This document shows positions 2,410 to 57,352 of a stretch of DNA of 57,352 nucleotides, one piece after another (position 1 is the stretch's first letter; each line of letters begins with the position of its first letter). The translations under genes and the position numbers were made by a program. The notes below the pieces were generated by a model. The model ran no database searches. It saw nothing but the letters and a program-made list of their open reading frames with translations, and had not been told where the DNA came from. Source of the stretch: an uncultured Bacilli bacterium (lineage in GTDB: Bacteria > Bacillota_I > Bacilli_A > RF39 > UBA660); contig CALVRX010000013.1 in assembly GCA_944358815.1 (NCBI GenBank), forward strand, positions 1-57,352. The letters are read 5' to 3'.

Positions 2410-2730
2410 CTAATTGATAAGAATTTAACTGTCTTCCATCACATTCAAACTATAATATTCTCCATCAAACAGTTTAATTATTAACTGTCACATAATTATT
2501 TGGATTGACTCATTTATAAAAAAATTATCTTCATATTCATCTTTATAAAGTCCATATACACTGATCACTATATCTACATTATCTAATATCTATTCCTCAT
2601 CAGATGAACATAAACACATTATTCATAAAGATCAGCTATGACTTCTGGTACATCGGCACTTAAAAATCCACTCATTTTATTATCATAAGACACATCATTA
2701 AAAAAAGTAACTACCACATATAACTATGAT
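2410..2730 (-). pseudogene. Decayed paralog of the N-terminal/middle part of the 56530..57352 protein
   Basis: Minus-strand fragments NDVSYDNKMSGFLSADVPEVIADLYE*, ILDNVDIVISVYGLYKDEYED and NPNNYVTVNN align to SGMQASDVQGAIDELY, ILDNTDIVTSGDGLYKDEYED and NPNNYVTFND; interrupted by stops and frameshifts. Confidence 0.75.
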
Positions 2731-46832: not shown

Positions 46833-47483
46833 TTATGCTTGAACATAATCTATATTTACTGTTAAATCCTTTCGAACTACACCAGCAACTTGTACTGCAT
46901 TTTGATAAGTAACCGTCAATTGTACATGTACAATAGAACCTTTAGGTAACACATCGCCTTCTTTAATACCCGAAAGATAATACAATATTGCATCGCCATC
47001 TTTATTTTCAGGTTCCATTCTAATATCATCGACTTTAGCATCCATATTTCCTCTATTTTCAATTGTCAAATCATAAACAATTTTATCACCAATATTAGAC
47101 AAAGAAACATAAAAATTCGCCTCATCTCTAGCAGAAATATCCGGTTTATTAACCTCTTTAGCGCTACCAACTATACTTAAAATTTCTGTATTAGTAAAAC
47201 CAATATAAATATGTTCATCTTTATACTGTTGATTATTAGAAGCAAGTGGTTGTGCAAAAGTTGAATACCACATAAGTAAAAGTGCTCCAAGTGCTACTAA
47301 AACAATCACAATACGATTTGTCGTCTTCTTAGAAAACTTAATATGACGATCCTTCGCATCAGTAATTTCATCCGCATGCGGTTCCCATATATCTAAAACT
47401 TCTATTTCATCATCTTTTTTTTCTTGCTTATCATCGACTTTAAACTTATCATCCATGTTATATTTATTATTCATAAATACCAT
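46833..47483 (-). CDS. Membrane-anchored protein with C-terminal Ig/camelysin-like beta-sandwich
   Basis: Single TM, then GDKIVYDLTIENRGNMDAKV...LTVNIDYVQ. Confidence 0.6.
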   Translation of the reverse strand: MVFMNNKYNMDDKFKVDDKQEKKDDEIEVLDIWEPHADEITDAKDRHIKFSKKTTNRIVIVLVALGALLLMWYSTFAQPLASNNQQYKDEHIYIGFTNTEILSIVGSAKEVNKPDISARDEANFYVSLSNIGDKIVYDLTIENRGNMDAKVDDIRMEPENKDGDAILYYLSGIKEGDVLPKGSIVHVQLTVTYQNAVQVAGVVRKDLTVNIDYVQA

Positions 47484-47539
47484 CCCCTACACTAAATTTA
47501 GTATATCATAAACCTTATATTTAAGCAACAATATACATT

Positions 47540-47567
47540 TCATATTTAACAATTTAAAACATAAAAT
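47540..47567 (+). promoter_or_regulatory. Putative sigma-E promoter
   Basis: TCATATT...CATAAAAT upstream of AAGGAGG and the YrzE-like gene. Confidence 0.5.
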
Positions 47568-47584
47568 TTACTAAAGGAGGAACT

Positions 47585-47941
47585 ATGAAATATTTAAAAA
47601 AACTATCTTTAAACCTTTTATATACCGTTATATTTTTTATACTTTTATCTTTAATTTTAACTACTTTTCACTATTTTAATATTATAAATTATCAAACTAT
47701 TGCCATCTTCAAAATAATTATTCCAATTCTAACTTTATTTTTTGGAGGCTTACTAATGGGAAAAAAAGCTACAAAAAACGGTTGGCTTGAAGGTTTAAAA
47801 ATAAGTCTTATCATAATTAGCATATTAACCATTATAACCATACTTATTAATGAATTCACTCCCAAAATACTAACCTTTTTCCTCATTTTAATCCTTTCAA
47901 GCATCTTTGGTAGTATTATTGGCATTAATAAAAATACTTAA
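47585..47941 (+). CDS. TIGR04086/YrzE-like membrane protein
   Basis: Four TMs, GKKATKNGWLEG, GSIIGIN; next to tgt as yrzE is in B. subtilis. Confidence 0.75.
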   Translation: MKYLKKLSLNLLYTVIFFILLSLILTTFHYFNIINYQTIAIFKIIIPILTLFFGGLLMGKKATKNGWLEGLKISLIIISILTIITILINEFTPKILTFFLILILSSIFGSIIGINKNT

Positions 47942-47947
47942 AGTTTT

Positions 47948-49467
<1,520 letters not shown>

Positions 49468-49505
49468 ATATATATCATACTTAAAAAATAAAATAAAATC
49501 AATGC

Positions 49506-49724
49506 TTACATATATTTTTGCATTGATTTCATCATTTGATTCACTTGTTTTTGACTAGGAGTTCTTCCCATCCCAGACATCATAGCTTTTATCATTTTTT
49601 CATTAATTGGTGGATGTTCCTTAAGTTGTTTCTTCATAACTTTTTTGGCTATCAAAAACCCTATAATAATTCCAACAATAAGTCCACCTATAACTTTTAA
49701 TAAATCTAATAAAAATGCTCCCAT
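49506..49724 (-). CDS. yneF: UPF0154/YneF family protein
   Basis: GFLIAKK...[13 protein letters not shown]...[13 protein letters not shown]. Confidence 0.92.
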
Positions 49725-49792
49725 TTTATCTGCCTCCTATAAAATATATTTTACTAAAAAATACCTTTAATAGCAAGCAAATCTTTTAATAT

Positions 49793-49930
49793 TTAAGAAT
49801 TTAAAGTAATATCTACTCCATCATCTTGGGTATGACTTTGAATAGCTACATTTTCCGATGCACCTATATAGCTTACTCCTAAAACCATTGCAACTAAAGC
49901 AATAATTGCCTTACATTTTAAAAATTCCAT
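49793..49930 (-). CDS. Small LexA-regulated membrane protein (45 aa, not in ORF track); SosA/YneA positional analogue
   Basis: MEFLKCKAIIALVAMVLGVSYIGASENVAIQSHTQDDGVDITLNS*; GGGAGG RBS; TTGACA-17-TATGAT promoter containing an SOS box. Confidence 0.7.
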   Translation of the reverse strand: MEFLKCKAIIALVAMVLGVSYIGASENVAIQSHTQDDGVDITLNS

Positions 49931-49957
49931 ATTTCATACCTCCCTTTTGACATATTA

Positions 49958-50035
49958 ATCATATCACGAACAAATATTCGTGTCAATACATTTTTCAAAC
50001 AAATGTTTGACTAAAATATTATAATATGTTAAAAT
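49958..50035. promoter_or_regulatory. Divergent promoters with two LexA (Cheo) boxes
   Basis: CGAACAAATATTCG at 49967-49980 lies in the spacer of the minus promoter; CAAACAAATGTTTG at 49996-50009 overlaps the lexA -35 (TTGACT-17-TAAAAT). Confidence 0.8.
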
Positions 50036-50062
50036 GTGTATAGAATAAATTAGGAGGAAAAA

Positions 50063-50680
50063 ATGGAAAAATTAACTCGTAGACAAACTGATGTTTTAAA
50101 CTATATAAAAAGTTATATTGTATCACATGGCTACCCACCAACAGTCAGAGAAATTGGTAAAGCCTTAAATATCTCATCACCAGCCACTATTCATGCCCAC
50201 TTAAACAATCTTGAAAAAAAAGGAATCATCAAAAAAGAAAGCTCTAAAAATAGAGCTATTGAACTACTAGTAAAAAATGAATTTGAACCCGAAAATGAAT
50301 TAGTCGCTGAAGTACCACTATTAGGTAAAATTACTGCCGGATCACCTATCGAAGCTATCGAAATGCCTGATGAATATTTTGCTATTCCTTCATATCTACT
50401 CCCAAAAGGAAAAGAAGTATTTACCCTAAAAGTTAGTGGCACTAGTATGATAAATGCTGGAATTTTAGATGGTGATATAGTCATTGTTGAAAGAAGAAAC
50501 AGCGCTAGAAATGGAGAAATAGTTGTCGCTATGAATGATGAAAATGAAGTAACTTTAAAAACCTTTTATAAAGAAAATGGACATTTTCGGCTTCAACCAG
50601 AAAATGACACTATGGATCCAATTATTTTAGATAACGTCACTATATTAGGCAAAGCTATTGGCTTATATAGAAAAATATAA
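50063..50680 (+). CDS. lexA: SOS repressor LexA
   Basis: GYPPTVREI HTH, ITAG cleavage site, SM catalytic Ser, VTLK catalytic Lys. Confidence 0.97.
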   Translation: MEKLTRRQTDVLNYIKSYIVSHGYPPTVREIGKALNISSPATIHAHLNNLEKKGIIKKESSKNRAIELLVKNEFEPENELVAEVPLLGKITAGSPIEAIEMPDEYFAIPSYLLPKGKEVFTLKVSGTSMINAGILDGDIVIVERRNSARNGEIVVAMNDENEVTLKTFYKENGHFRLQPENDTMDPIILDNVTILGKAIGLYRKI

Positions 50681-50695
50681 CATACAAATCGTATG

Positions 50696-51523
50696 TTATT
50701 TTTTATAAAAAGTACTAGACATCTTATACTTGCCATCTTCTAACACCAAAGCAATTATATTACCCTTAGCATTTATTTTTTCTTCTAAAGAAGCATCTTT
50801 CCAAGTAATCCCACCATCTAAACTATACTTGTAAGTATAATTATCTCCAGTAGGATACTCAATTACTAAATCATTACCATCTTTAAATTCAATACCACCA
50901 GTAACTTTAATTAATCTATTTCTTGAAATAGTATTACCTCGAGCATCTTGAGCCTTACATTCAATCACATAATTTCCAACCTTCGAAGTAAGCGTATTAT
51001 CACAAGAAAAACTTACCTCACCAGAATTATCAGTCGCCACTACCCCATCTTCTACATTATAACTTAACGCCTCATCACTAGTAATAGTTACTGTATCCGG
51101 AACTACTAAATGTGGTTTTTTATTATCTGTAACTATCACTACCCTAGTACCTTCTTTTAATTTTTTACCATCACTCACTTCATACTTAACAACATAATTA
51201 CCAACTTGATCAGTATTAATTGAACTAATTTGATTACCATCTTTATAATAAGATATAACTATTTTTTTTGAAATATTTTCACCATCAGCTATCGCTTTAG
51301 CGCCTTCTTCTTTATACTTTTCATTAACTCCAACATAAGATACAAAATTACCATTAAGAGCTAAAGTAAACCCATCTGATTTTACATTTGTATTTTGCAA
51401 AACCTCTTTAGCTTCTGGTCTATTCATATAATTAACAATTTTAGAACCAATCAATAAAATGACAAGCCCAATAACAATTAAAGTAATCAAACCAACTAAC
51501 TGAGCTCTAGTATAACCATTCAT
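50696..51523 (-). CDS. Membrane-anchored Ig-like (DUF5011/HYR-type) protein
   Basis: TM; YKEEGAKAID, GNYVVKYEVSD, VATDNSG repeats; follows two pilin genes. Confidence 0.7.
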   Translation of the reverse strand: MNGYTRAQLVGLITLIVIGLVILLIGSKIVNYMNRPEAKEVLQNTNVKSDGFTLALNGNFVSYVGVNEKYKEEGAKAIADGENISKKIVISYYKDGNQISSINTDQVGNYVVKYEVSDGKKLKEGTRVVIVTDNKKPHLVVPDTVTITSDEALSYNVEDGVVATDNSGEVSFSCDNTLTSKVGNYVIECKAQDARGNTISRNRLIKVTGGIEFKDGNDLVIEYPTGDNYTYKYSLDGGITWKDASLEEKINAKGNIIALVLEDGKYKMSSTFYKK

Positions 51524-51527
51524 AAAA

Positions 51528-51962
51528 TCATTCCTTATTTATATTCGCAATTGTGCAACTATCTGCATCAGTAATATTTTTATTTATCCTAATATCTTTT
51601 TCTGACGCATCTTTAACCGCACAAATATGAGCATCATTACTCCAAAGTGCTAAAGAAACTTTACCATTTTCATCAACACTAAACTCTCCAGCATCTGGTA
51701 AATCACCATCAGTTTTCAAAACATTTTTTTCTGTTTCTGTACTCGTCTTATAATTAATAAAAAGTGTTGTATTTTCATTTGCCGCTTGTTTTTCTGCTTG
51801 ATAAGTGCCAGCTGCCACCACTAAACCATGTGCACTATCCACAAAGGCTTTTTCTCTAGAAGATTGAATTATATTTAAAACAATAGGAGTTGTTATCAAA
51901 GCAATAATCGCAATAATTGCAATAACTGCTAAAAGTTCAACTAACGTAAAACCCTTTTTCAT
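51528..51962 (-). CDS. Type IV pilin
   Basis: MKKG|FTLVELLAVIAIIAIIALITTP class III signal peptide; C-terminal Cys pair; GAGGAGG RBS. Confidence 0.9.
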   Translation of the reverse strand: MKKGFTLVELLAVIAIIAIIALITTPIVLNIIQSSREKAFVDSAHGLVVAAGTYQAEKQAANENTTLFINYKTSTETEKNVLKTDGDLPDAGEFSVDENGKVSLALWSNDAHICAVKDASEKDIRINKNITDADSCTIANINKE

Positions 51963-51963
51963 A

Positions 51964-52329
51964 TTATTCAACCTCCTCGACATCATAAGCATATTCTGTA
52001 GCTCCCACTTTTTCAATACAAACCTTAGTTAATTGTGAAAAATTATCATTAGTCTTCGGATTTTTTATATCGACCGGTAAATAACCATTTTTTTGTAAAT
52101 ATTCGATTGTCTGACAAGCCTTATCTCCTACACTTACCGGCATCTCATCCAAATGTTCCGTATAATAATCCTCTCCACCTTTTTTTAACTGTTCAATTTG
52201 TGTTTCATATAAATCTTCTCTGCCACTATCTAACGATCTATTAATAGCTGGCACCGTAATCAATGCAATAACTCCAAGTATTGCGATAACTCCAAGTAAC
52301 TCTGCTAACGTGAAACCTTTATTATTCAT
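51964..52329 (-). CDS. Type IV pilin (ComGC-like)
   Basis: MNNKG|FTLAELLGVIAILGVIALITVP; LQKNGYL...KNPKT; Cys pair. Confidence 0.9.
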   Translation of the reverse strand: MNNKGFTLAELLGVIAILGVIALITVPAINRSLDSGREDLYETQIEQLKKGGEDYYTEHLDEMPVSVGDKACQTIEYLQKNGYLPVDIKNPKTNDNFSQLTKVCIEKVGATEYAYDVEEVE

Positions 52330-52403
52330 ATCATCACCTATATTAATTATACAACATTTTCTTTTATAAATAAAATAAAAAGTAACTATTTTTCATAATT
52401 ACT

Positions 52404-52625
52404 TTACTCATTTACTTCAAAATTTTCCAATTCTCCATTTTCTGTTACTATTTTATTCACTTTTTCTTCGATATTTTTTAACTCCGCATCACACTCTTTA
52501 ACTAATTTCATCGCTTCTGTATATTTTTTTATCGATTCATCTAAAGACACTTCACCATTTTCTAAAACAGCGATTGTCTCTTCTAACTCTTTAATCTTAT
52601 CTTCAAATTTTTTCTCTTTTGCCAT
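52404..52625 (-). CDS. xseB: Exodeoxyribonuclease VII small subunit
   Basis: FEDKIKELE...LENGEVSLDESIKKY. Confidence 0.93.
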   Translation of the reverse strand: MAKEKKFEDKIKELEETIAVLENGEVSLDESIKKYTEAMKLVKECDAELKNIEEKVNKIVTENGELENFEVNE

Positions 52626-53897
52626 TTATTTGTCCTCCTTCACTTTTAAAACTTGTGTTTCTATTAAACCATCAGTTAATTTTATCTGTAACAAATCATT
52701 TTCTTTAACGCTCTTTATACTCTTCAAAGCCTTATCATTTAAATAAGTAATACTATAACCTCTGCTTAATATATTTAATGGATTAAGCAAATTAAGTTTA
52801 TCAATTATATTTTTAAGCTCCAATACCTTATCTTTGTAAATCAACTGTGGATTAGCTAAAACATAACTCTTTTTAATTTTCTCAAGTTCATTTTTATTCC
52901 TATCTACTTTTCCCAAAATAAGATCATTTAATTTATCATTTATCAAAGCTAAATTCTGCTTTTTGCTGTCAAACATAATCATTGGATTCTTAATTACAAA
53001 TGAATTTTTTACTGATTCCAAATACAATTTTAAATAATTAACTTTTTTATAAATAGCTTCATTAAGTCTAATAGACAACTGATCGATATGTTTCTTTAAA
53101 TCACTCATATTAGGCACTGCTAGTTCTGCTGCAGCTGTCGGCGTTGGAGCTCTCAAATCAGCCACAAAATCAGCAATTGTAAAATCAACTTCATGACCTA
53201 CTGCACTAATAATAGGCACTTTACTATTATAAATAGCCCTAGCAACCACTTCTTCATTAAAAGGCCATAAATCTTCAATAGAACCACCACCACGACCAAC
53301 AATAAGTACATCTAAATCATATCTCTGTGCTCTTTCAATATTACGAACAATATCATCTTTAGCATTCTCACCTTGAACTAAAGTTGGAAACAAAATAGTC
53401 TCACATATTGGAAACCTTCTCTTAATAGTAGTTATAATATCACGAATAGCTGCTCCTGTACTAGCCGTTACAATACCTATTCTTCGTGGAATCTTTGGAA
53501 TTGATCTCTTATGTGAAGCATCAAATAAACCCTCAGCTTGTAATTTTTTCTTAAGTTGTTCAAAAGCAATATATAAATTACCTACTCCATCTTCAAGCAT
53601 TTCATCGACATATATTTGATAACTTCCCATTGCCTCATAAATACTAATTCTTCCTCTAACTAAAACCTTCATCCCATCTGCCGGCTTAAAAAGAACCTTA
53701 TTTGCATTACTTCTAAACATCACCGCATTAATTTTACTACCTTCATCTTTTAAAGAAAAATAAAAATGACCAGTAGTATGTGCTTTAAAATTAGAAATTT
53801 CCCCTTTTAAAAAAACCGTTTGCAAATTTTCATCGACATCAAATTTTGCCTTTAAATAACGAGTAATGGCACTAACTGAAAGATATTTATCACTCAC
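52626..53897 (-). CDS. xseA: Exodeoxyribonuclease VII large subunit
   Basis: GEISNF, GHFYFSLKD, GRGGGSIEDL, VGHEVD, APTPTAAAE. Confidence 0.96.
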   Translation of the reverse strand: MSDKYLSVSAITRYLKAKFDVDENLQTVFLKGEISNFKAHTTGHFYFSLKDEGSKINAVMFRSNANKVLFKPADGMKVLVRGRISIYEAMGSYQIYVDEMLEDGVGNLYIAFEQLKKKLQAEGLFDASHKRSIPKIPRRIGIVTASTGAAIRDIITTIKRRFPICETILFPTLVQGENAKDDIVRNIERAQRYDLDVLIVGRGGGSIEDLWPFNEEVVARAIYNSKVPIISAVGHEVDFTIADFVADLRAPTPTAAAELAVPNMSDLKKHIDQLSIRLNEAIYKKVNYLKLYLESVKNSFVIKNPMIMFDSKKQNLALINDKLNDLILGKVDRNKNELEKIKKSYVLANPQLIYKDKVLELKNIIDKLNLLNPLNILSRGYSITYLNDKALKSIKSVKENDLLQIKLTDGLIETQVLKVKEDK

Positions 53898-54301
53898 TAT
53901 TGCACCTTTTCATGATAAATTTTATCTAAAACTCCATTTATCATCTTTCTAACACTATCATCGCTATATTTTTTAGCAAGTTCAACTGCCTCATTAATAG
54001 CCACAACATCAGGCGTATCAGTATACAAAAGTTCAAATATTCCCATTCTAAGTATTGCCATATCCGTATTACCTAATCTATCAATAGTCCAGCCATCTAA
54101 ATATTTATTTGCCAGCTTATCTATATCATTTTTATAAGTCAAAACCCCATACACTATTTCTTTAACATATTCATTGTCAATTGGTGACACCTCAGAAATC
54201 ACATCGTCGACATTATACTGCATATGTGCCTTATCATAAACTGTCATCTGATATAAAATAGTCATACATTTTCTTCTAAGTTCGCTTCTATTTTCCGTCA
54301 T
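53897..54301 (-). CDS. nusB: Transcription antitermination factor NusB
   Basis: RSELR...[29 protein letters not shown]. Confidence 0.93.
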
Positions 54302-54412
54302 ATCATAAACAAGCAGGTTAAATATTAACCCACCATACTCCTTTCCACAAAATCTATATTCAATTATATCACACGCCCAAATAAATTCAAAGACTTAAAT
54401 TATTCAAAAACT

Positions 54413-55486
54413 TTAGTGTAAATGTTTTGCCTTTAACTCTTCATTACTCACGCCAAATCGTTTTATAAAATCTTTATTAGACATCACCAAATAATTAAAT
54501 GCCTTATGATCTAAAACAATATTATTAAAAATTAAATAATCCATACGTGCCAAAGTAAGATTTTCACTTTGTATTAAATAAGTTGGTCTTCTTACTACCT
54601 CAGACTCTAATGACGCGTTTTTTAAAATATCCAGTTTCTTATTTACACCTGCCACTGAATAACTAAAAATCATAGGTACCTTCGTTGTTATTCTAATAAC
54701 ATCATTATTAGAATAACCTCGATTCAAAAAATTTTGAAAAGTATTCGCAATATTTTCTTCACTCAACACATATATTATCGGATTTACTCCCGTAATATGA
54801 TTAATCTCGTCTTCACTATAACCCAGTTTAACCAAACACTTTCGTTTATTTTCAAGCGTATCCACACTTACAACCATAATATTAGAATTTCTATAAATCA
54901 TCTTCTTGATACGTTCACTATCATAACCTTTAGAAAGTAAATAATCATAATTCTTCTGTAAAAGTTCTAAACTATAAGTATAAATCATAGGCGAATCCTT
55001 AGTAATTTTATTAATCTCCTTATCATCAAACCCAATTTTTTTTAAAAAATCACGTTTACTATTTAATTTCTTAGAAGAAATACTAAATAAACTAGGAAGT
55101 ATTACCGTAAGTTCATGCACTGTAGTTTTAAAATAACCATAATCCTTTAAAAGATTTAACTTTGTTAAAATAAGATTTTCACTAATTGTTAATAATTGTG
55201 GAAGTTTTTTAGTCATTTTTTTTATCTCATCATCTTTGTAACCTAGTTCATGCAAAAAAGCAAAACGCCTATTTAACGTTTTGATCGGATAATTCAATAA
55301 AGCTGGATTACAAGTCGTCATATAAATAATATCTTCATCTAAAAAACCCAACCCTTTTAAATAATTAAACATAACTTTTACCTTAGACTCCAAAGTAGGT
55401 AAACTAAGCCTACTTCCAACATAACTATTCATAATCTTAATTTGTGACTTCTCATCATAACCTAATTTACTCAATAATTCAGACAT
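54413..55486 (-). CDS. mTERF-like tandem repeat protein
   Basis: About eight repeats of about 35 aa, pattern (L)GY/FxxxEIxxMxxxxPxLLxxSxxxLxxKxxxL, ending VVRRPTYL. Confidence 0.7.
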   Translation of the reverse strand: MSELLSKLGYDEKSQIKIMNSYVGSRLSLPTLESKVKVMFNYLKGLGFLDEDIIYMTTCNPALLNYPIKTLNRRFAFLHELGYKDDEIKKMTKKLPQLLTISENLILTKLNLLKDYGYFKTTVHELTVILPSLFSISSKKLNSKRDFLKKIGFDDKEINKITKDSPMIYTYSLELLQKNYDYLLSKGYDSERIKKMIYRNSNIMVVSVDTLENKRKCLVKLGYSEDEINHITGVNPIIYVLSEENIANTFQNFLNRGYSNNDVIRITTKVPMIFSYSVAGVNKKLDILKNASLESEVVRRPTYLIQSENLTLARMDYLIFNNIVLDHKAFNYLVMSNKDFIKRFGVSNEELKAKHLH

Positions 55487-55495
55487 ATCAATCAC

Positions 55496-55864
55496 CTACA
55501 TTTTTCTTAATGAAAATAAATACCAAAAATGTACATAAAAATATAAAATTATAAATATCGTCCATCCTAAAATGGGTACTACTAAACTAACAATCCACGG
55601 ATAAGGTAATAAATAAACCTCTTCCCCCGGGACCTTAAATTTTAAACTTACCAAACAGCCAATCTTAATCGAAAAAACTAATAACATAATAAGTCCTGGA
55701 AAAATGCCCATCATAAATCCCAAAACCCAATAGTACCAACGATGATACCAAGCATCTTTATCATATAAATCTAACTTATATGCGATATAAAATGTGAAAA
55801 GTCCTAAAGTTATAACATTTAAAATTAAATAAATCCAAAATTTTTTCCGCATCTTCTCCATCAT
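55496..55864 (-). CDS. Hypothetical membrane protein
   Basis: Three to four TMs, LNVITLGLF motif; AAGGAG RBS. Confidence 0.65.
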   Translation of the reverse strand: MMEKMRKKFWIYLILNVITLGLFTFYIAYKLDLYDKDAWYHRWYYWVLGFMMGIFPGLIMLLVFSIKIGCLVSLKFKVPGEEVYLLPYPWIVSLVVPILGWTIFIILYFYVHFWYLFSLRKM

Positions 55865-55907
55865 AACGTTCTCCTTTGAAGGGTCAAAAAAAAGATAAAT
55901 AATTATC

Positions 55908-56099
55908 TTATTGGCAAGTTCCCTCACCTGGTTTAGACCCTTCGACATACTCTTTATCTATAAGTTTACAAGATGTTTTTGTCATTGAGTCTTGAAGATA
56001 GCCCCCCAATAGCTTAACTAAACTAACGACTACTACACTAATAATCGCTATAATTAGTAAATATTCTACTAGGGCTTGACCTTTATTATTTAATTTCAT
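55908..56099 (-). CDS. Flp/Tad-type (type IVb/c) pilin
   Basis: MKLNNKG|QALVEYLLIIAIISVVVV (G|QxxxEY motif); GGAGGG RBS. Confidence 0.85.
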   Translation of the reverse strand: MKLNNKGQALVEYLLIIAIISVVVVSLVKLLGGYLQDSMTKTSCKLIDKEYVEGSKPGEGTCQ

Positions 56100-56235
56100 A
56101 AAACCCTCCACAAAAATATCATAACTTATTTCAATTATAATTTTTTTTTTAATAAAAATCAACCCCATTAGCAAAAAACAAACAAATTTAAAGACAAAAA
56201 GTATAAAATGTGTTAAGATAAAAATGGTGAGAAAG

Positions 56236-56520
56236 ATGAAAATAATTGAAGCCAAAACTTTCTATCAAAAACTAAAAGGCCTTATGTTTCAAAAAGAATT
56301 TGATTACATTCTCAAATTTAAAACAAATGGCATCCATACTTTTTTTATGAAAACAAACATTGACGTTATTTTAACGGATAAAAATAATAAAATCTTACAC
56401 ATCTATAAAAACCTAAAACCAAATAAAATAATATTACCCAAAAAAGGTGTAAAATACATCTATGAAATACCTGTAAACTATATAAACAAAACAAAAATCG
56501 GAGATTATTTTAATCCCTGA
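56236..56520 (+). CDS. DUF192 family protein
   Basis: AKTFYQKLKGLM, IHTFFMK, IDVI, YE; this family is often found near Tad/Flp loci. Confidence 0.8.
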   Translation: MKIIEAKTFYQKLKGLMFQKEFDYILKFKTNGIHTFFMKTNIDVILTDKNNKILHIYKNLKPNKIILPKKGVKYIYEIPVNYINKTKIGDYFNP

Positions 56521-56529
56521 TTTTTTTAT

Positions 56530-57352
56530 TTACCCTAAAATATATGGATCTGACGCTGTTCCTGTACCTCTCGTGATTTGGACTTCAGAAGAAAGAGTTA
56601 TAGCGGGCCTGACTCCATGGTATGTAGTGCTCACATAGTCGCTGTTGACGCCGCCACTGCTGTGCACGGTGAACACGTAGCTAGAGGAGTCAGAATTAGG
56701 CGACAAGGTCCACCAATAATTAATACTTGAATCAAACATCCAATCGCTATTCTTACATGTCCTATAATTATTTTTATTTAAACTAAATGTTCCACACTGT
56801 TTTTTATTTGAATTTGCTCTTATATATTCACTTAACGTTGGTAAGGCTACTTTTACTTTTGATGTTGTTCCTTTTTCATCACTAATTTGGTCTTGTATAT
56901 AATTATTACCCAATGTTACTGCACCCGCATAATACGTTGCTTCTACTATTTGACTTTGAGCTGTGCTTGTTAAACTATTATAATAATCCCCATTCAAATA
57001 AGTATTTAAAGTTGCAGGAAAATTCCAATTATTTGAACTGAAACTATCCCATGCTAAATTATCAGAAGTATTTATATCTGCATCCCTCATTATCTTTATC
57101 GTTCCATCTGAATTTATGGATATGATTCTCCAACCTGCTATTTCATCATTAAATGTTACATAATTATTGGGATTGGCTCCTTTATATGTATATTTTCCGT
57201 CTTCATATTCATCTTTGTATAACCCATCTCCTGAGGTTACTATATCAGTATTATCTAATATTGAATCACCAGTAGTAGGTTCTTTTGTACATTCTGCATA
57301 AAGCTCATCTATTGCTCCTTGAACATCACTCGCCTGCATTCCACTCGCCGTA
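56530..57352 (-). CDS. C-type-lectin-fold/DUF6273-like surface protein, probable DGR target (partial, starts beyond window)
   Basis: Frame open to the window edge; KGANPNNYV, WRII, VALPTLSEY, WWTLSP...GVRPAITL, GTGTASDPY. Confidence 0.8.
   Translation of the reverse strand, partial: TASGMQASDVQGAIDELYAECTKEPTTGDSILDNTDIVTSGDGLYKDEYEDGKYTYKGANPNNYVTFNDEIAGWRIISINSDGTIKIMRDADINTSDNLAWDSFSSNNWNFPATLNTYLNGDYYNSLTSTAQSQIVEATYYAGAVTLGNNYIQDQISDEKGTTSKVKVALPTLSEYIRANSNKKQCGTFSLNKNNYRTCKNSDWMFDSSINYWWTLSPNSDSSSYVFTVHSSGGVNSDYVSTTYHGVRPAITLSSEVQITRGTGTASDPYILG
56601..56716 (-). repeat. Putative DGR variable region (VR)
   Basis: About 55% GC (61/110 by hand count over 56601-56710); 19 of 35 codons between WW and GVRP end in C; pattern fits A-to-N mutagenesis of AAC/AAT codons. 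Confidence 0.7.

Follow-up and report, generated by a model that had tools for sequence, protein, structure and literature searches.

How does a surface-protein gene in an AT-rich chromosome come to end in what looks like the variable region (VR) of a DGR, when the DNA around it holds neither of the partners that such a region needs? The gene lies at the very end of the window (the whole stretch of 57,352 bases analysed here, contig C13), which is part of a MAG of 1.05 Mb in 50 contigs, with 63% completeness and a GC content of approximately 29%. Neither an RT gene nor a template repeat (TR) was found in the 57,352-base window, as already stated in the first-pass annotation of this DNA. The locus raises the questions of what wrote the VR, from which template, and whether this copy is still being rewritten.

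A GC-rich patch at the end of a DUF6273 gene

The features of the window referred to in the following are:

~56530-57352, minus strand: target gene, 3' 822 bases, with the 5' end cut by the contig end; open reading frame of 273 residues
56605-56715, minus strand: variable region, codons WWTLSP...GVRP, i.e. residues 213-249 of the 273-residue open frame
56605-56707, minus strand: stretch of 103 nt homologous to template repeats of congeners, with mismatches to the TRs of genomes G009 and G003 biased towards A sites
56575-56604, minus strand: conserved IMH-like flank on the 3' side of the VR, at which VRs and TRs cease to match
56224-56520, plus strand: DUF192 gene, neighbour of the target (Pfam 40.7 bits, cut-off 27)
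55908-56255, minus strand: Flp-like open reading frame, below the cut-off for Flp_Fap (21.8 against 32.2 bits)
56100-57352: segment unusually similar to genomes G009 and G023 (95-98% identity)

The patch at 56601-56716 has a GC content of 0.552 (z 4.6, relative to a mean of 0.291 and an sd of 0.056 over the window), and is the single region of the window in which GC reaches 0.50 or more over 116 nt. Its position and composition are thus as first annotated. Nineteen of the 37 codons of the VR end in C, compared to 14 of 236 in the remaining gene (Fisher p 6e-11); the earlier figure of 19/35 was right in its count, while its denominator depends on where the region is cut (37 for WWTLSP...GVRP). 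The jump in GC is explained by the design of the TRs, which are built from codons that are either adenine-free scaffold (GTG, TTC, GGC, GTC, GCG, TCT) or adenine-containing, mostly AAY; A-to-N changes would raise the GC content of a VR further. The congeners are as AT-rich as the MAG, yet the GC-rich patch is common to all of them. In alignments, the 3' flank (56575-56604) is near-invariant across VRs of several species despite being coding, with 30/30 bases identical to G009 and 27/30 to G023. Copies of the TR beside RT genes diverge from the VRs directly after a GC-rich ...GTC(A/C)G(G/C)CC element, and such a parting would be as expected for an IMH-like site.

Full-length orthologues of the target have an open frame of 339 residues. 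The target protein matches Pfam family DUF6273 (E 1.4e-13, 51.5 bits against a cut-off of 23.5, residues 99-254), and a paralogue in G009 scores 49.2 bits with the same family; a search of 50,697 phage records with the target protein gave no match (E 1e-3). In full-length members of the family, a hydrophobic anchor forms the N-terminus, and a conserved motif that closes with ...VQGAIDELY comes next. In an AlphaFold2 model built from an alignment of 17 family members (mean pLDDT 89.8), VR residues 213-249 form the last beta-strands. The best structural match of the model is 9qa6 (Z 16.4, rmsd 2.9, 195 residues, 23% identity, model residues 28-273; Foldseek E 2.2e-7). Most of the 50 structural matches listed are C-type-lectin domains with Z 4.5-6.8, a modest range according to the tool's own note, and include the Treponema denticola variable protein 2y3c (TvpA; Z 5.9, rmsd 4.3, 135 residues); a formylglycine-enzyme-like protein is also among them. 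The lectin-fold matches of the model, modest in Z but consistent, agree with the models of phage DUF6273 proteins described in PMC10743442. The structure prediction therefore bears out the CLec fold that had been suggested for the target, with the VR in its C-terminal part, and the target is a predicted membrane-anchored surface protein of the DUF6273/C-type-lectin fold.

The gene belongs to a large family. By tblastn, 20 paralogous loci with a homologous C-terminal domain (the query included) are present in the 63%-complete MAG; some are interrupted by in-frame stops or truncated at the end of a contig, and further N-terminal fragments are also present. Only one of the 20 paralogues carries a fresh VR, the other 19 having a non-A identity of at most 0.73 to any of 22 TRs. 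Hypervariable loops occur in the family even where paralogues have no TR match.

Of the neighbours named at first, DUF192 is well supported by its score and is an ordinary neighbour of the target gene; the Flp pilin is a sub-cut-off match to Flp_Fap. The further suggestion that the protein is displayed via pili finds no support: the neighbour in question falls below the cut-off, the orthologues have an N-terminal membrane anchor of their own, and other paralogues that were examined have different neighbours. No pilin-like N-terminus was seen in the target protein either.

Templates and cassettes in related genomes

The VR DNA is matched in 11 of 65 genomes of the genus that were searched, G000 included. 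The cassette of one congener, G003, lies between tig and priA and consists of a TR, a MutS_I-like gene (PF01624, E 7e-8), bAvd (PF22296, E 1.3e-11) and an RT of 386 residues. No target adjoins this cassette within approximately 6 kb. G003 has four VRs, all of them on contigs other than the cassette's; compared to the G003 TR, each has 17-20 of the 36 A sites changed, and 1-2 of the 67 non-A sites. The G003 TR encodes LSPNSSNSNNVFNVNNNGNVNNNNANNTNNAVRP, and the TR peptide that had been deduced in the first-pass annotation by reverting variable positions to asparagine agrees with it at 31 of 34 residues.

Two other congeners have more VRs than G003. Genome G009, which is complete at 1.52 Mb, has nine such VRs, spread from 140 kb to 1434 kb. 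The TR of G009 is cut after approximately 60 nt and adjoins three recombinase genes and an IS, and no clade-A RT is found in this complete genome, nor in the G023 assembly. In genome G018, eight such VRs are present, and on a short contig its TR adjoins a clade-A RT. Eighteen more congeners have TR variants built to this design. Clade-A-type TRs are a common feature of the genus, with 22 TRs from 22 genomes; TRs with a TR-type 3' flank are found in several congeners, some of them beside clade-A RT genes. The TR type reads LSPNS(S/D)NSNN(V/L)FNVN(N/S)NGNVNNNNANNTNNAVRP. Near the 3' flank, VRs carry the non-A signature of their own genome, namely GTCCGCCCT in G003, GTCAGGCCTGCC in G018 and GTCAGGCCCGC in G009, G023 and G000.

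Two proposals made from the window alone find support in relatives. The DGR is chromosomal and multi-target, with a cassette between tig and priA in G003, nine VRs in G009 and eight in G018; and a remote target can be served in trans, TR and RT not being adjacent to it, as in G003 with its VRs only on other contigs. So far as the tests go, this is not a phage-borne system, judging from the tig-priA location, the lack of a match in the phage records and the clade-A RT, which is less than 36% identical to the phage RTs listed.

Mismatches between the VR studied here and the TRs of congeners concentrate on TR adenines, which supports its assignment as a DGR variable region. The best of the 22 TRs tried is that of G009 (non-A identity 41/42), which, being truncated, makes 60 of the approximately 103 VR positions comparable with a close TR; over these, 9 of 18 A sites and 1 of 42 non-A sites are changed (Fisher p 2.8e-5). 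Against the G003 TR, 18 of 36 A sites and 13 of 67 non-A sites are changed (p 0.0017), and 11-13 non-A sites differ between the VR and foreign TRs. The same bias is apparent across 27 VRs of 7 genomes, with a column entropy of 1.59 bits at TR-adenine columns (n=36) and of 0.42 elsewhere (n=67; Mann-Whitney p 4e-16).

From the relation of VRs to TRs, the cassettes of the relatives and the predicted fold, we infer a process of mutagenic retrohoming. The RT, together with bAvd and the MutS-like accessory protein, would copy TR RNA into cDNA and misincorporate opposite template adenines, and this cDNA would then replace any VR with a matching GC-rich 3' element. The TR-MSL-avd-RT cassette found at tig-priA in congeners would in this way serve several dispersed targets in trans, and the VR would form the ligand-facing C-terminal part of the C-type-lectin-like (DUF6273) domain.

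The missing cassette and the age of this copy

A comparable cassette was searched for in the MAG itself. The BLASTN check proposed at the outset, for a TR-like copy elsewhere in the genome, yielded none: in the 1.05-Mb, 63%-complete assembly, no TR for the VR was found by blastn of the VR or by A-tolerant ungapped scans, and the same kind of scan found none for any of the 20 VR-like regions of the MAG. Low-stringency blastn of the surroundings of the RT gene on contig C41 (see below) against the MAG, a scan of the assembly for AAC density, which picks up the TRs of relatives as positive controls, and a blastn search of the assembly with TRs of clades B and C were equally negative. A bAvd gene was not detected in the assembly (PF22296, PF05635 and tblastn), while Avd proteins of congeners do match PF22296 in a control; PF05635 was rejected as the family of these Avd proteins, the match of the congeners' proteins being to PF22296 instead. 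An MSL homologue (72% identity) is present on contig C39 beside a paralogue of the target, with neither avd nor RT there, and the search for a clade-A RT in the MAG assembly was negative. The tig gene is broken off at its residue 357 of 417 by the end of contig C12 (base 1), and p332/priA begin at base 3 of contig C45, so the tig-priA locus is an assembly gap in the MAG. Exact-pattern scans of JGI metagenome contigs for the missing tig-priA locus or for variants of the VR gave 0 matches.

A single RT gene remains:

C41:7501-8571: only RT gene in the assembly, DGR-like by its best PDB match and its IGNETSQ motif

The best PDB match of this enzyme is 8ub7 (E 1.4e-23), listed simply as 'Reverse transcriptase' and taken here to be the DGR RT of a Bordetella phage, compared to E 2.3e-11 for a group II intron RT, and its IGNETSQ motif aligns to IGSLTSQ of 8ub7. 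Of 24 other genomes sampled from the genus, 15 encode RTs related to the C41 enzyme. It belongs to clade B, being 79% identical to an RT of G009 whose TRs are unrelated to the VR studied here, and 49% identical to the clade-A RT. The gene adjoins fragments of the same protein family as the target. Homology to the RTs of relatives starts only at about codon 31, and the sequence just before it resembles the central part of a G009 target gene of 1011 residues; together, these observations imply a deletion of approximately 4.4 kb in which the VR, the TRs, avd and the N-terminus of the RT were lost. The C41 RT is thus an N-terminally truncated deletion remnant of another DGR clade.

The age of the present VR sequence can be judged from its orthologues in G023 and G009, which lie in the same gene order as here. 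The VR is identical to that of G023 at 107/111 positions (96.4%) and to that of G009 at 103/111 (92.8%), and the gene upstream of the VR at 606/637 (95.1%) and 599/637 (94.0%), respectively. Since the VRs are no more diverged than the remaining gene, no re-diversification appears to have taken place since the split from the G023 and G009 orthologues. This copy has probably not been re-diversified recently, and present-day hypermutation of the VR, as originally envisaged, finds no support in orthologous VRs as similar as the rest of the gene. Four of the seven substitution sites among the three VR copies fall on TR-A sites of the alignment; in G003, a single homing event changes about half of the 36 such sites of a VR. 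The genomes G023 and G009 are 99-100% identical to each other downstream of the gene, and their VRs differ by 3 substitutions and a one-codon indel. One non-A change is private to the VR of the MAG, which reads GGA in place of the GCA of the orthologues; all contigs of runs X2, X5 and X6 have the other letter at 56615.

The high similarity of 56100-57352 to G009 and G023 is confined to this part of the contig. Identity to the relatives is 74% in the downstream stretch 55081-55908, and 81.7% over 10 kb of synteny. This suggests that segment 56100-57352 was recently exchanged between species, and such a recent exchange would limit the time over which the VR has been static.

Logan contigs, rather than reads, of four sequencing runs were aligned to the stretch at 80% likeness, so that paralogues and congeners are mixed in these data. 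Contig depth is lowest over 56604-56687 in all four runs, in contigs that mix paralogues, congeners and variants of the locus. Some contigs match both sides of the VR yet skip 68-81 bases of its core, and in these a paralogue and a variant are indistinguishable. In a run from a different study, a contig of 151 nt spans 56635-56785 and shows 2 differences. Runs labelled chicken gut, bird, feces and metagenome contain near-identical pieces of the stretch.

Taken as a whole, we are confident that the VR is a genuine DGR variable region written by a remote TR and RT; since the split from its orthologues, this copy has probably not been rewritten. As to its present state, we lean somewhat towards a VR that is frozen or imported, with its cassette lost in this genome as in G009. 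Loss of the cassette is favoured by the lack of a clade-A RT in the genome with the nearest TR, G009, by the presence of a fresh VR in only one of 20 paralogues, and by the decay of the DGR on C41.

It may well be, instead, that the VR is a live target, still rewritten by an intact cassette within the unassembled tig-priA gap; identity to the orthologues would then stem solely from the segment having been exchanged very recently, or from one variant having been selected. The syntenic tig-priA locus is exactly a gap between contigs, and VR, 3' flank and reading frame are all intact. Cassettes are common in the genus, TRs with a TR-type 3' flank being found in several congeners and in some cases beside clade-A RTs, and the segment 56100-57352 does seem to have been exchanged recently. 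Moreover, diversifying VRs are prone to break assemblies, and several paralogues end at contig ends. Against continued rewriting stand the relatives that bear the orthologues, which have no clade-A RT (G009, complete and with a truncated TR, and the G023 assembly), the single fresh VR among 20 paralogues and the private non-A change (GGA instead of GCA), and we keep to a frozen or imported VR as the slightly more probable account.

That the C41 enzyme diversifies the VR in trans is very improbable. It is the sole RT in the assembly, of DGR type and located beside fragments of the target's family, but it belongs to clade B, has lost its N-terminus, and finds neither a TR nor an Avd in the assembly to work with; it was rejected as the enzyme of this VR both for its clade and as a deletion remnant. 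Hardly more credible is an origin outside any DGR, in which a fast-evolving lectin loop would have received its GC-rich patch by gene conversion or from a GC-richer donor: paralogues without a TR match also have hypervariable loops and the segment shows signs of exchange between species, but the variation over 27 copies falls on TR adenines, the scaffold positions match TRs within RT and Avd cassettes, and equally AT-rich congeners share the patch.

A broader scenario may be put forward tentatively. In this genus of uncultured gut Bacilli with reduced genomes, one tig-priA cassette would rewrite at least nine dispersed DUF6273 lectin genes in trans, genes with VRs would be swapped between species, and lineages would repeatedly lose the cassette and keep frozen repertoires. 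If this is true, the VR at the end of our window is one element, imported and frozen or still live, of a variable-lectin system common to the whole lineage, to which a considerable part of a genome of 1-1.5 Mb is devoted.

Comparison with known DGRs

A full-text literature search of non-subscription journals found no work on DGRs in this lineage, and supplementary tables of surveys may list such genomes. Large metagenome surveys state that DGRs with remote targets are invisible to them (PMC8144416), which implies that orphan VRs such as this one are under-counted. The VR described here was recognisable from composition alone and could be tied to a template via congeners.

A close parallel among cellular systems is the DGR of Treponema denticola with its TvpA protein, which is likewise chromosomal, has several remote targets, and places the VR at the C-terminus of a C-type-lectin-like fold. 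The Treponema cassette has an HRDC accessory gene (Architecture C, PMC5758913), in contrast to MSL and avd in the congeners studied here, and the proteins targeted here belong to DUF6273, carry a membrane anchor at the N-terminus and come from a gut lineage of Gram-positive type. In the available part of the 2018 survey, seven non-adjacent targets are the reported maximum (PMC5758913), compared to nine VRs of one TR type in G009; at least nine targets per cassette, if the scenario above is true, would exceed this number. DGRs of Architecture D, e.g. in Legionella, combine MSL and avd (Wu et al. 2018, PMC5758913) and thus have the same gene set as the cassette of the congeners. They differ in that the G003 cassette is without any adjacent target, and the MAG retains only the MSL homologue on C39.

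Incomplete loci, and remote VRs that match a TR elsewhere at all non-adenine sites, are described for Thiohalocapsa PB-PSB1 (PMC10907252). The target of DGR 1 in that organism matches its TR yet is invariable, the same state as that of the VR reported here (PMC10907252). The targets of Thiohalocapsa are NACHT/STAND-type sensors of a large multicellular proteobacterium, in which diversification was measured in the population (PMC10907252).

As to the domain, the 'tentaclins' and target2 of phages nd4 and nd12 are DUF6273 proteins, modelled as C-type-lectin-like and hypermutated by a DGR (PMC10743442), so DUF6273 is already known as a DGR target domain in phages from what that study reports. Those phage targets serve in receptor binding, and in target1 the VR lies close to the 5' end (PMC10743442), unlike in the target here. 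The structure closest to the model, 9qa6, is the N-terminal DUF6273 domain of an IgA peptidase of Thomasclavelia ramosa (PMC12402451). This domain is fused to an M64 peptidase and is not known to be diversified by a DGR. The available portion of its description assigns it no ligand (PMC12402451), so that the match gives no function for the target.

Remote and multiple targets, MSL as an accessory gene, action in trans and an invariable target matching a TR have thus all been described before, as far as the accessible parts of the two studies go (PMC5758913, PMC10907252). What is of interest here is the number of dispersed VRs per template (nine in G009), how large the family is for a small genome, and a series that runs from intact cassette to fossil among members of a single genus. 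In these gut Bacilli with small genomes, many lectin-like surface proteins share a single template. With an intact cassette in G003, a truncated TR without a clade-A RT in G009, and the remnant on C41, this series could serve for studies of how DGRs are gained, exchanged and frozen.

Possible exchange and conversion around the window gene

The synteny of about 10 kb shared by the window and its relatives is not uniform in divergence. The DUF6273 target gene and its neighbours stand out when compared with orthologous DNA in two congener genomes, G009 and G023.

Window 56100-57352, compared with 47416-56100: high-identity segment that spans the target gene and DUF192 and reaches into the start of the Flp-like ORF

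Because identity to G009 and G023 is 95-98% in this segment, against about 74-82% in the remainder of the synteny (window 47416-56100), the sequence comparison suggests that 56100-57352 was recently exchanged between species. A second pattern was noted between the two orthologues themselves (L025/L026). Identity between G023 and G009 stands at 99-100% downstream of the gene (306/306, 315/315 and 826/833), compared with only 94.7% in the part of the gene upstream of the variable region (VR). The differences there are clustered, and may represent gene conversion among paralogues.

ORFs with prepilin-like or Flp-like features, and GC-rich islands

Window 51528-52329 and 55908-56255: prepilin-like N-termini and a weak Flp_Fap match

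In two window ORFs the N-terminus is type IV prepilin-like (GFTL.ELL...); a short ORF has a G....EY motif and matches Flp_Fap only below threshold. Elsewhere in the AT-rich MAG containing the window (G000), the AAC-density scan also flagged islands of collagen-like and Pro/Thr repeats. One of the two GC-rich islands at C38:13416-13698 and C14:61-217 is a collagen-like Gly-X-Y repeat (GC 0.56-0.58), the other a Pro/Thr linker repeat (GC 0.52).

DGR loci and apparent remnants

G000 C41:7501-9250 (L008 1321-3067): DGR-type reverse transcriptase (RT) joined to a target gene's 5' portion
G000 C39:32683-34249: closest paralogue (55% identity) and MutS-like gene
L047 4378-8000 (G009:C1:140377-144000): cut copy of the template repeat (TR) at the tig locus, ending after about 60 nt
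L022 5288-6825 (G009:C1:197288-198825): clade-B DGR with a single VR, and with several TR-like copies in tandem

Similarity of the C41 RT to the RTs of relatives begins only at about codon 31, and the DNA upstream of it corresponds to the central part of G009's 1011-residue target. The avd gene, VR and TRs are gone at this locus, where a deletion of about 4.4 kb apparently fused the RT to the 5' part of the target gene. On C39, the next gene after the closest paralogue is homologous to the MutS-like DGR accessory gene (72% identical to its G003 counterpart), and a two-component system comes after that; neither RT nor avd is present. This locus looks like a second decayed cassette. In G009, a complete genome, the MutS-like gene, avd and RT are all missing between the cut TR and the gene preceding priA, and three tyrosine-recombinase-like ORFs and an IS3-like transposase lie 3' of the cut. 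The clade-B DGR of G009 carries its TR-like copies, in families of 113, 71, 167 and 73 nt, between the 1011-residue target and avd.

Dispersed modules and template-like copies

G000 C41:8750-9705 and many other contigs, with a fragment at window 2435-2589: N-terminal module of the family (anchor and ...VQGAIDELY motif)
L045 3700-3885 (G003:C4) and L060 379-510 (G003:C1): TR-like copies, each about 180 nt downstream of a target gene

The N-terminal module recurs in short ORFs arranged in tandem, upstream of the full genes, and is often accompanied by a gene in divergent orientation built of two XRE-type HTH repeats. In the congener G003, the two extra TR-like copies share 99% identity with the cassette TR, a match that takes in 26 nt of its 5' flank as well, and every adenine is unchanged in both. 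Yet both run on into a 3' flank of the VR type and a target-gene tail. They may have arisen by recombination between TR and VR, or may be second templates.
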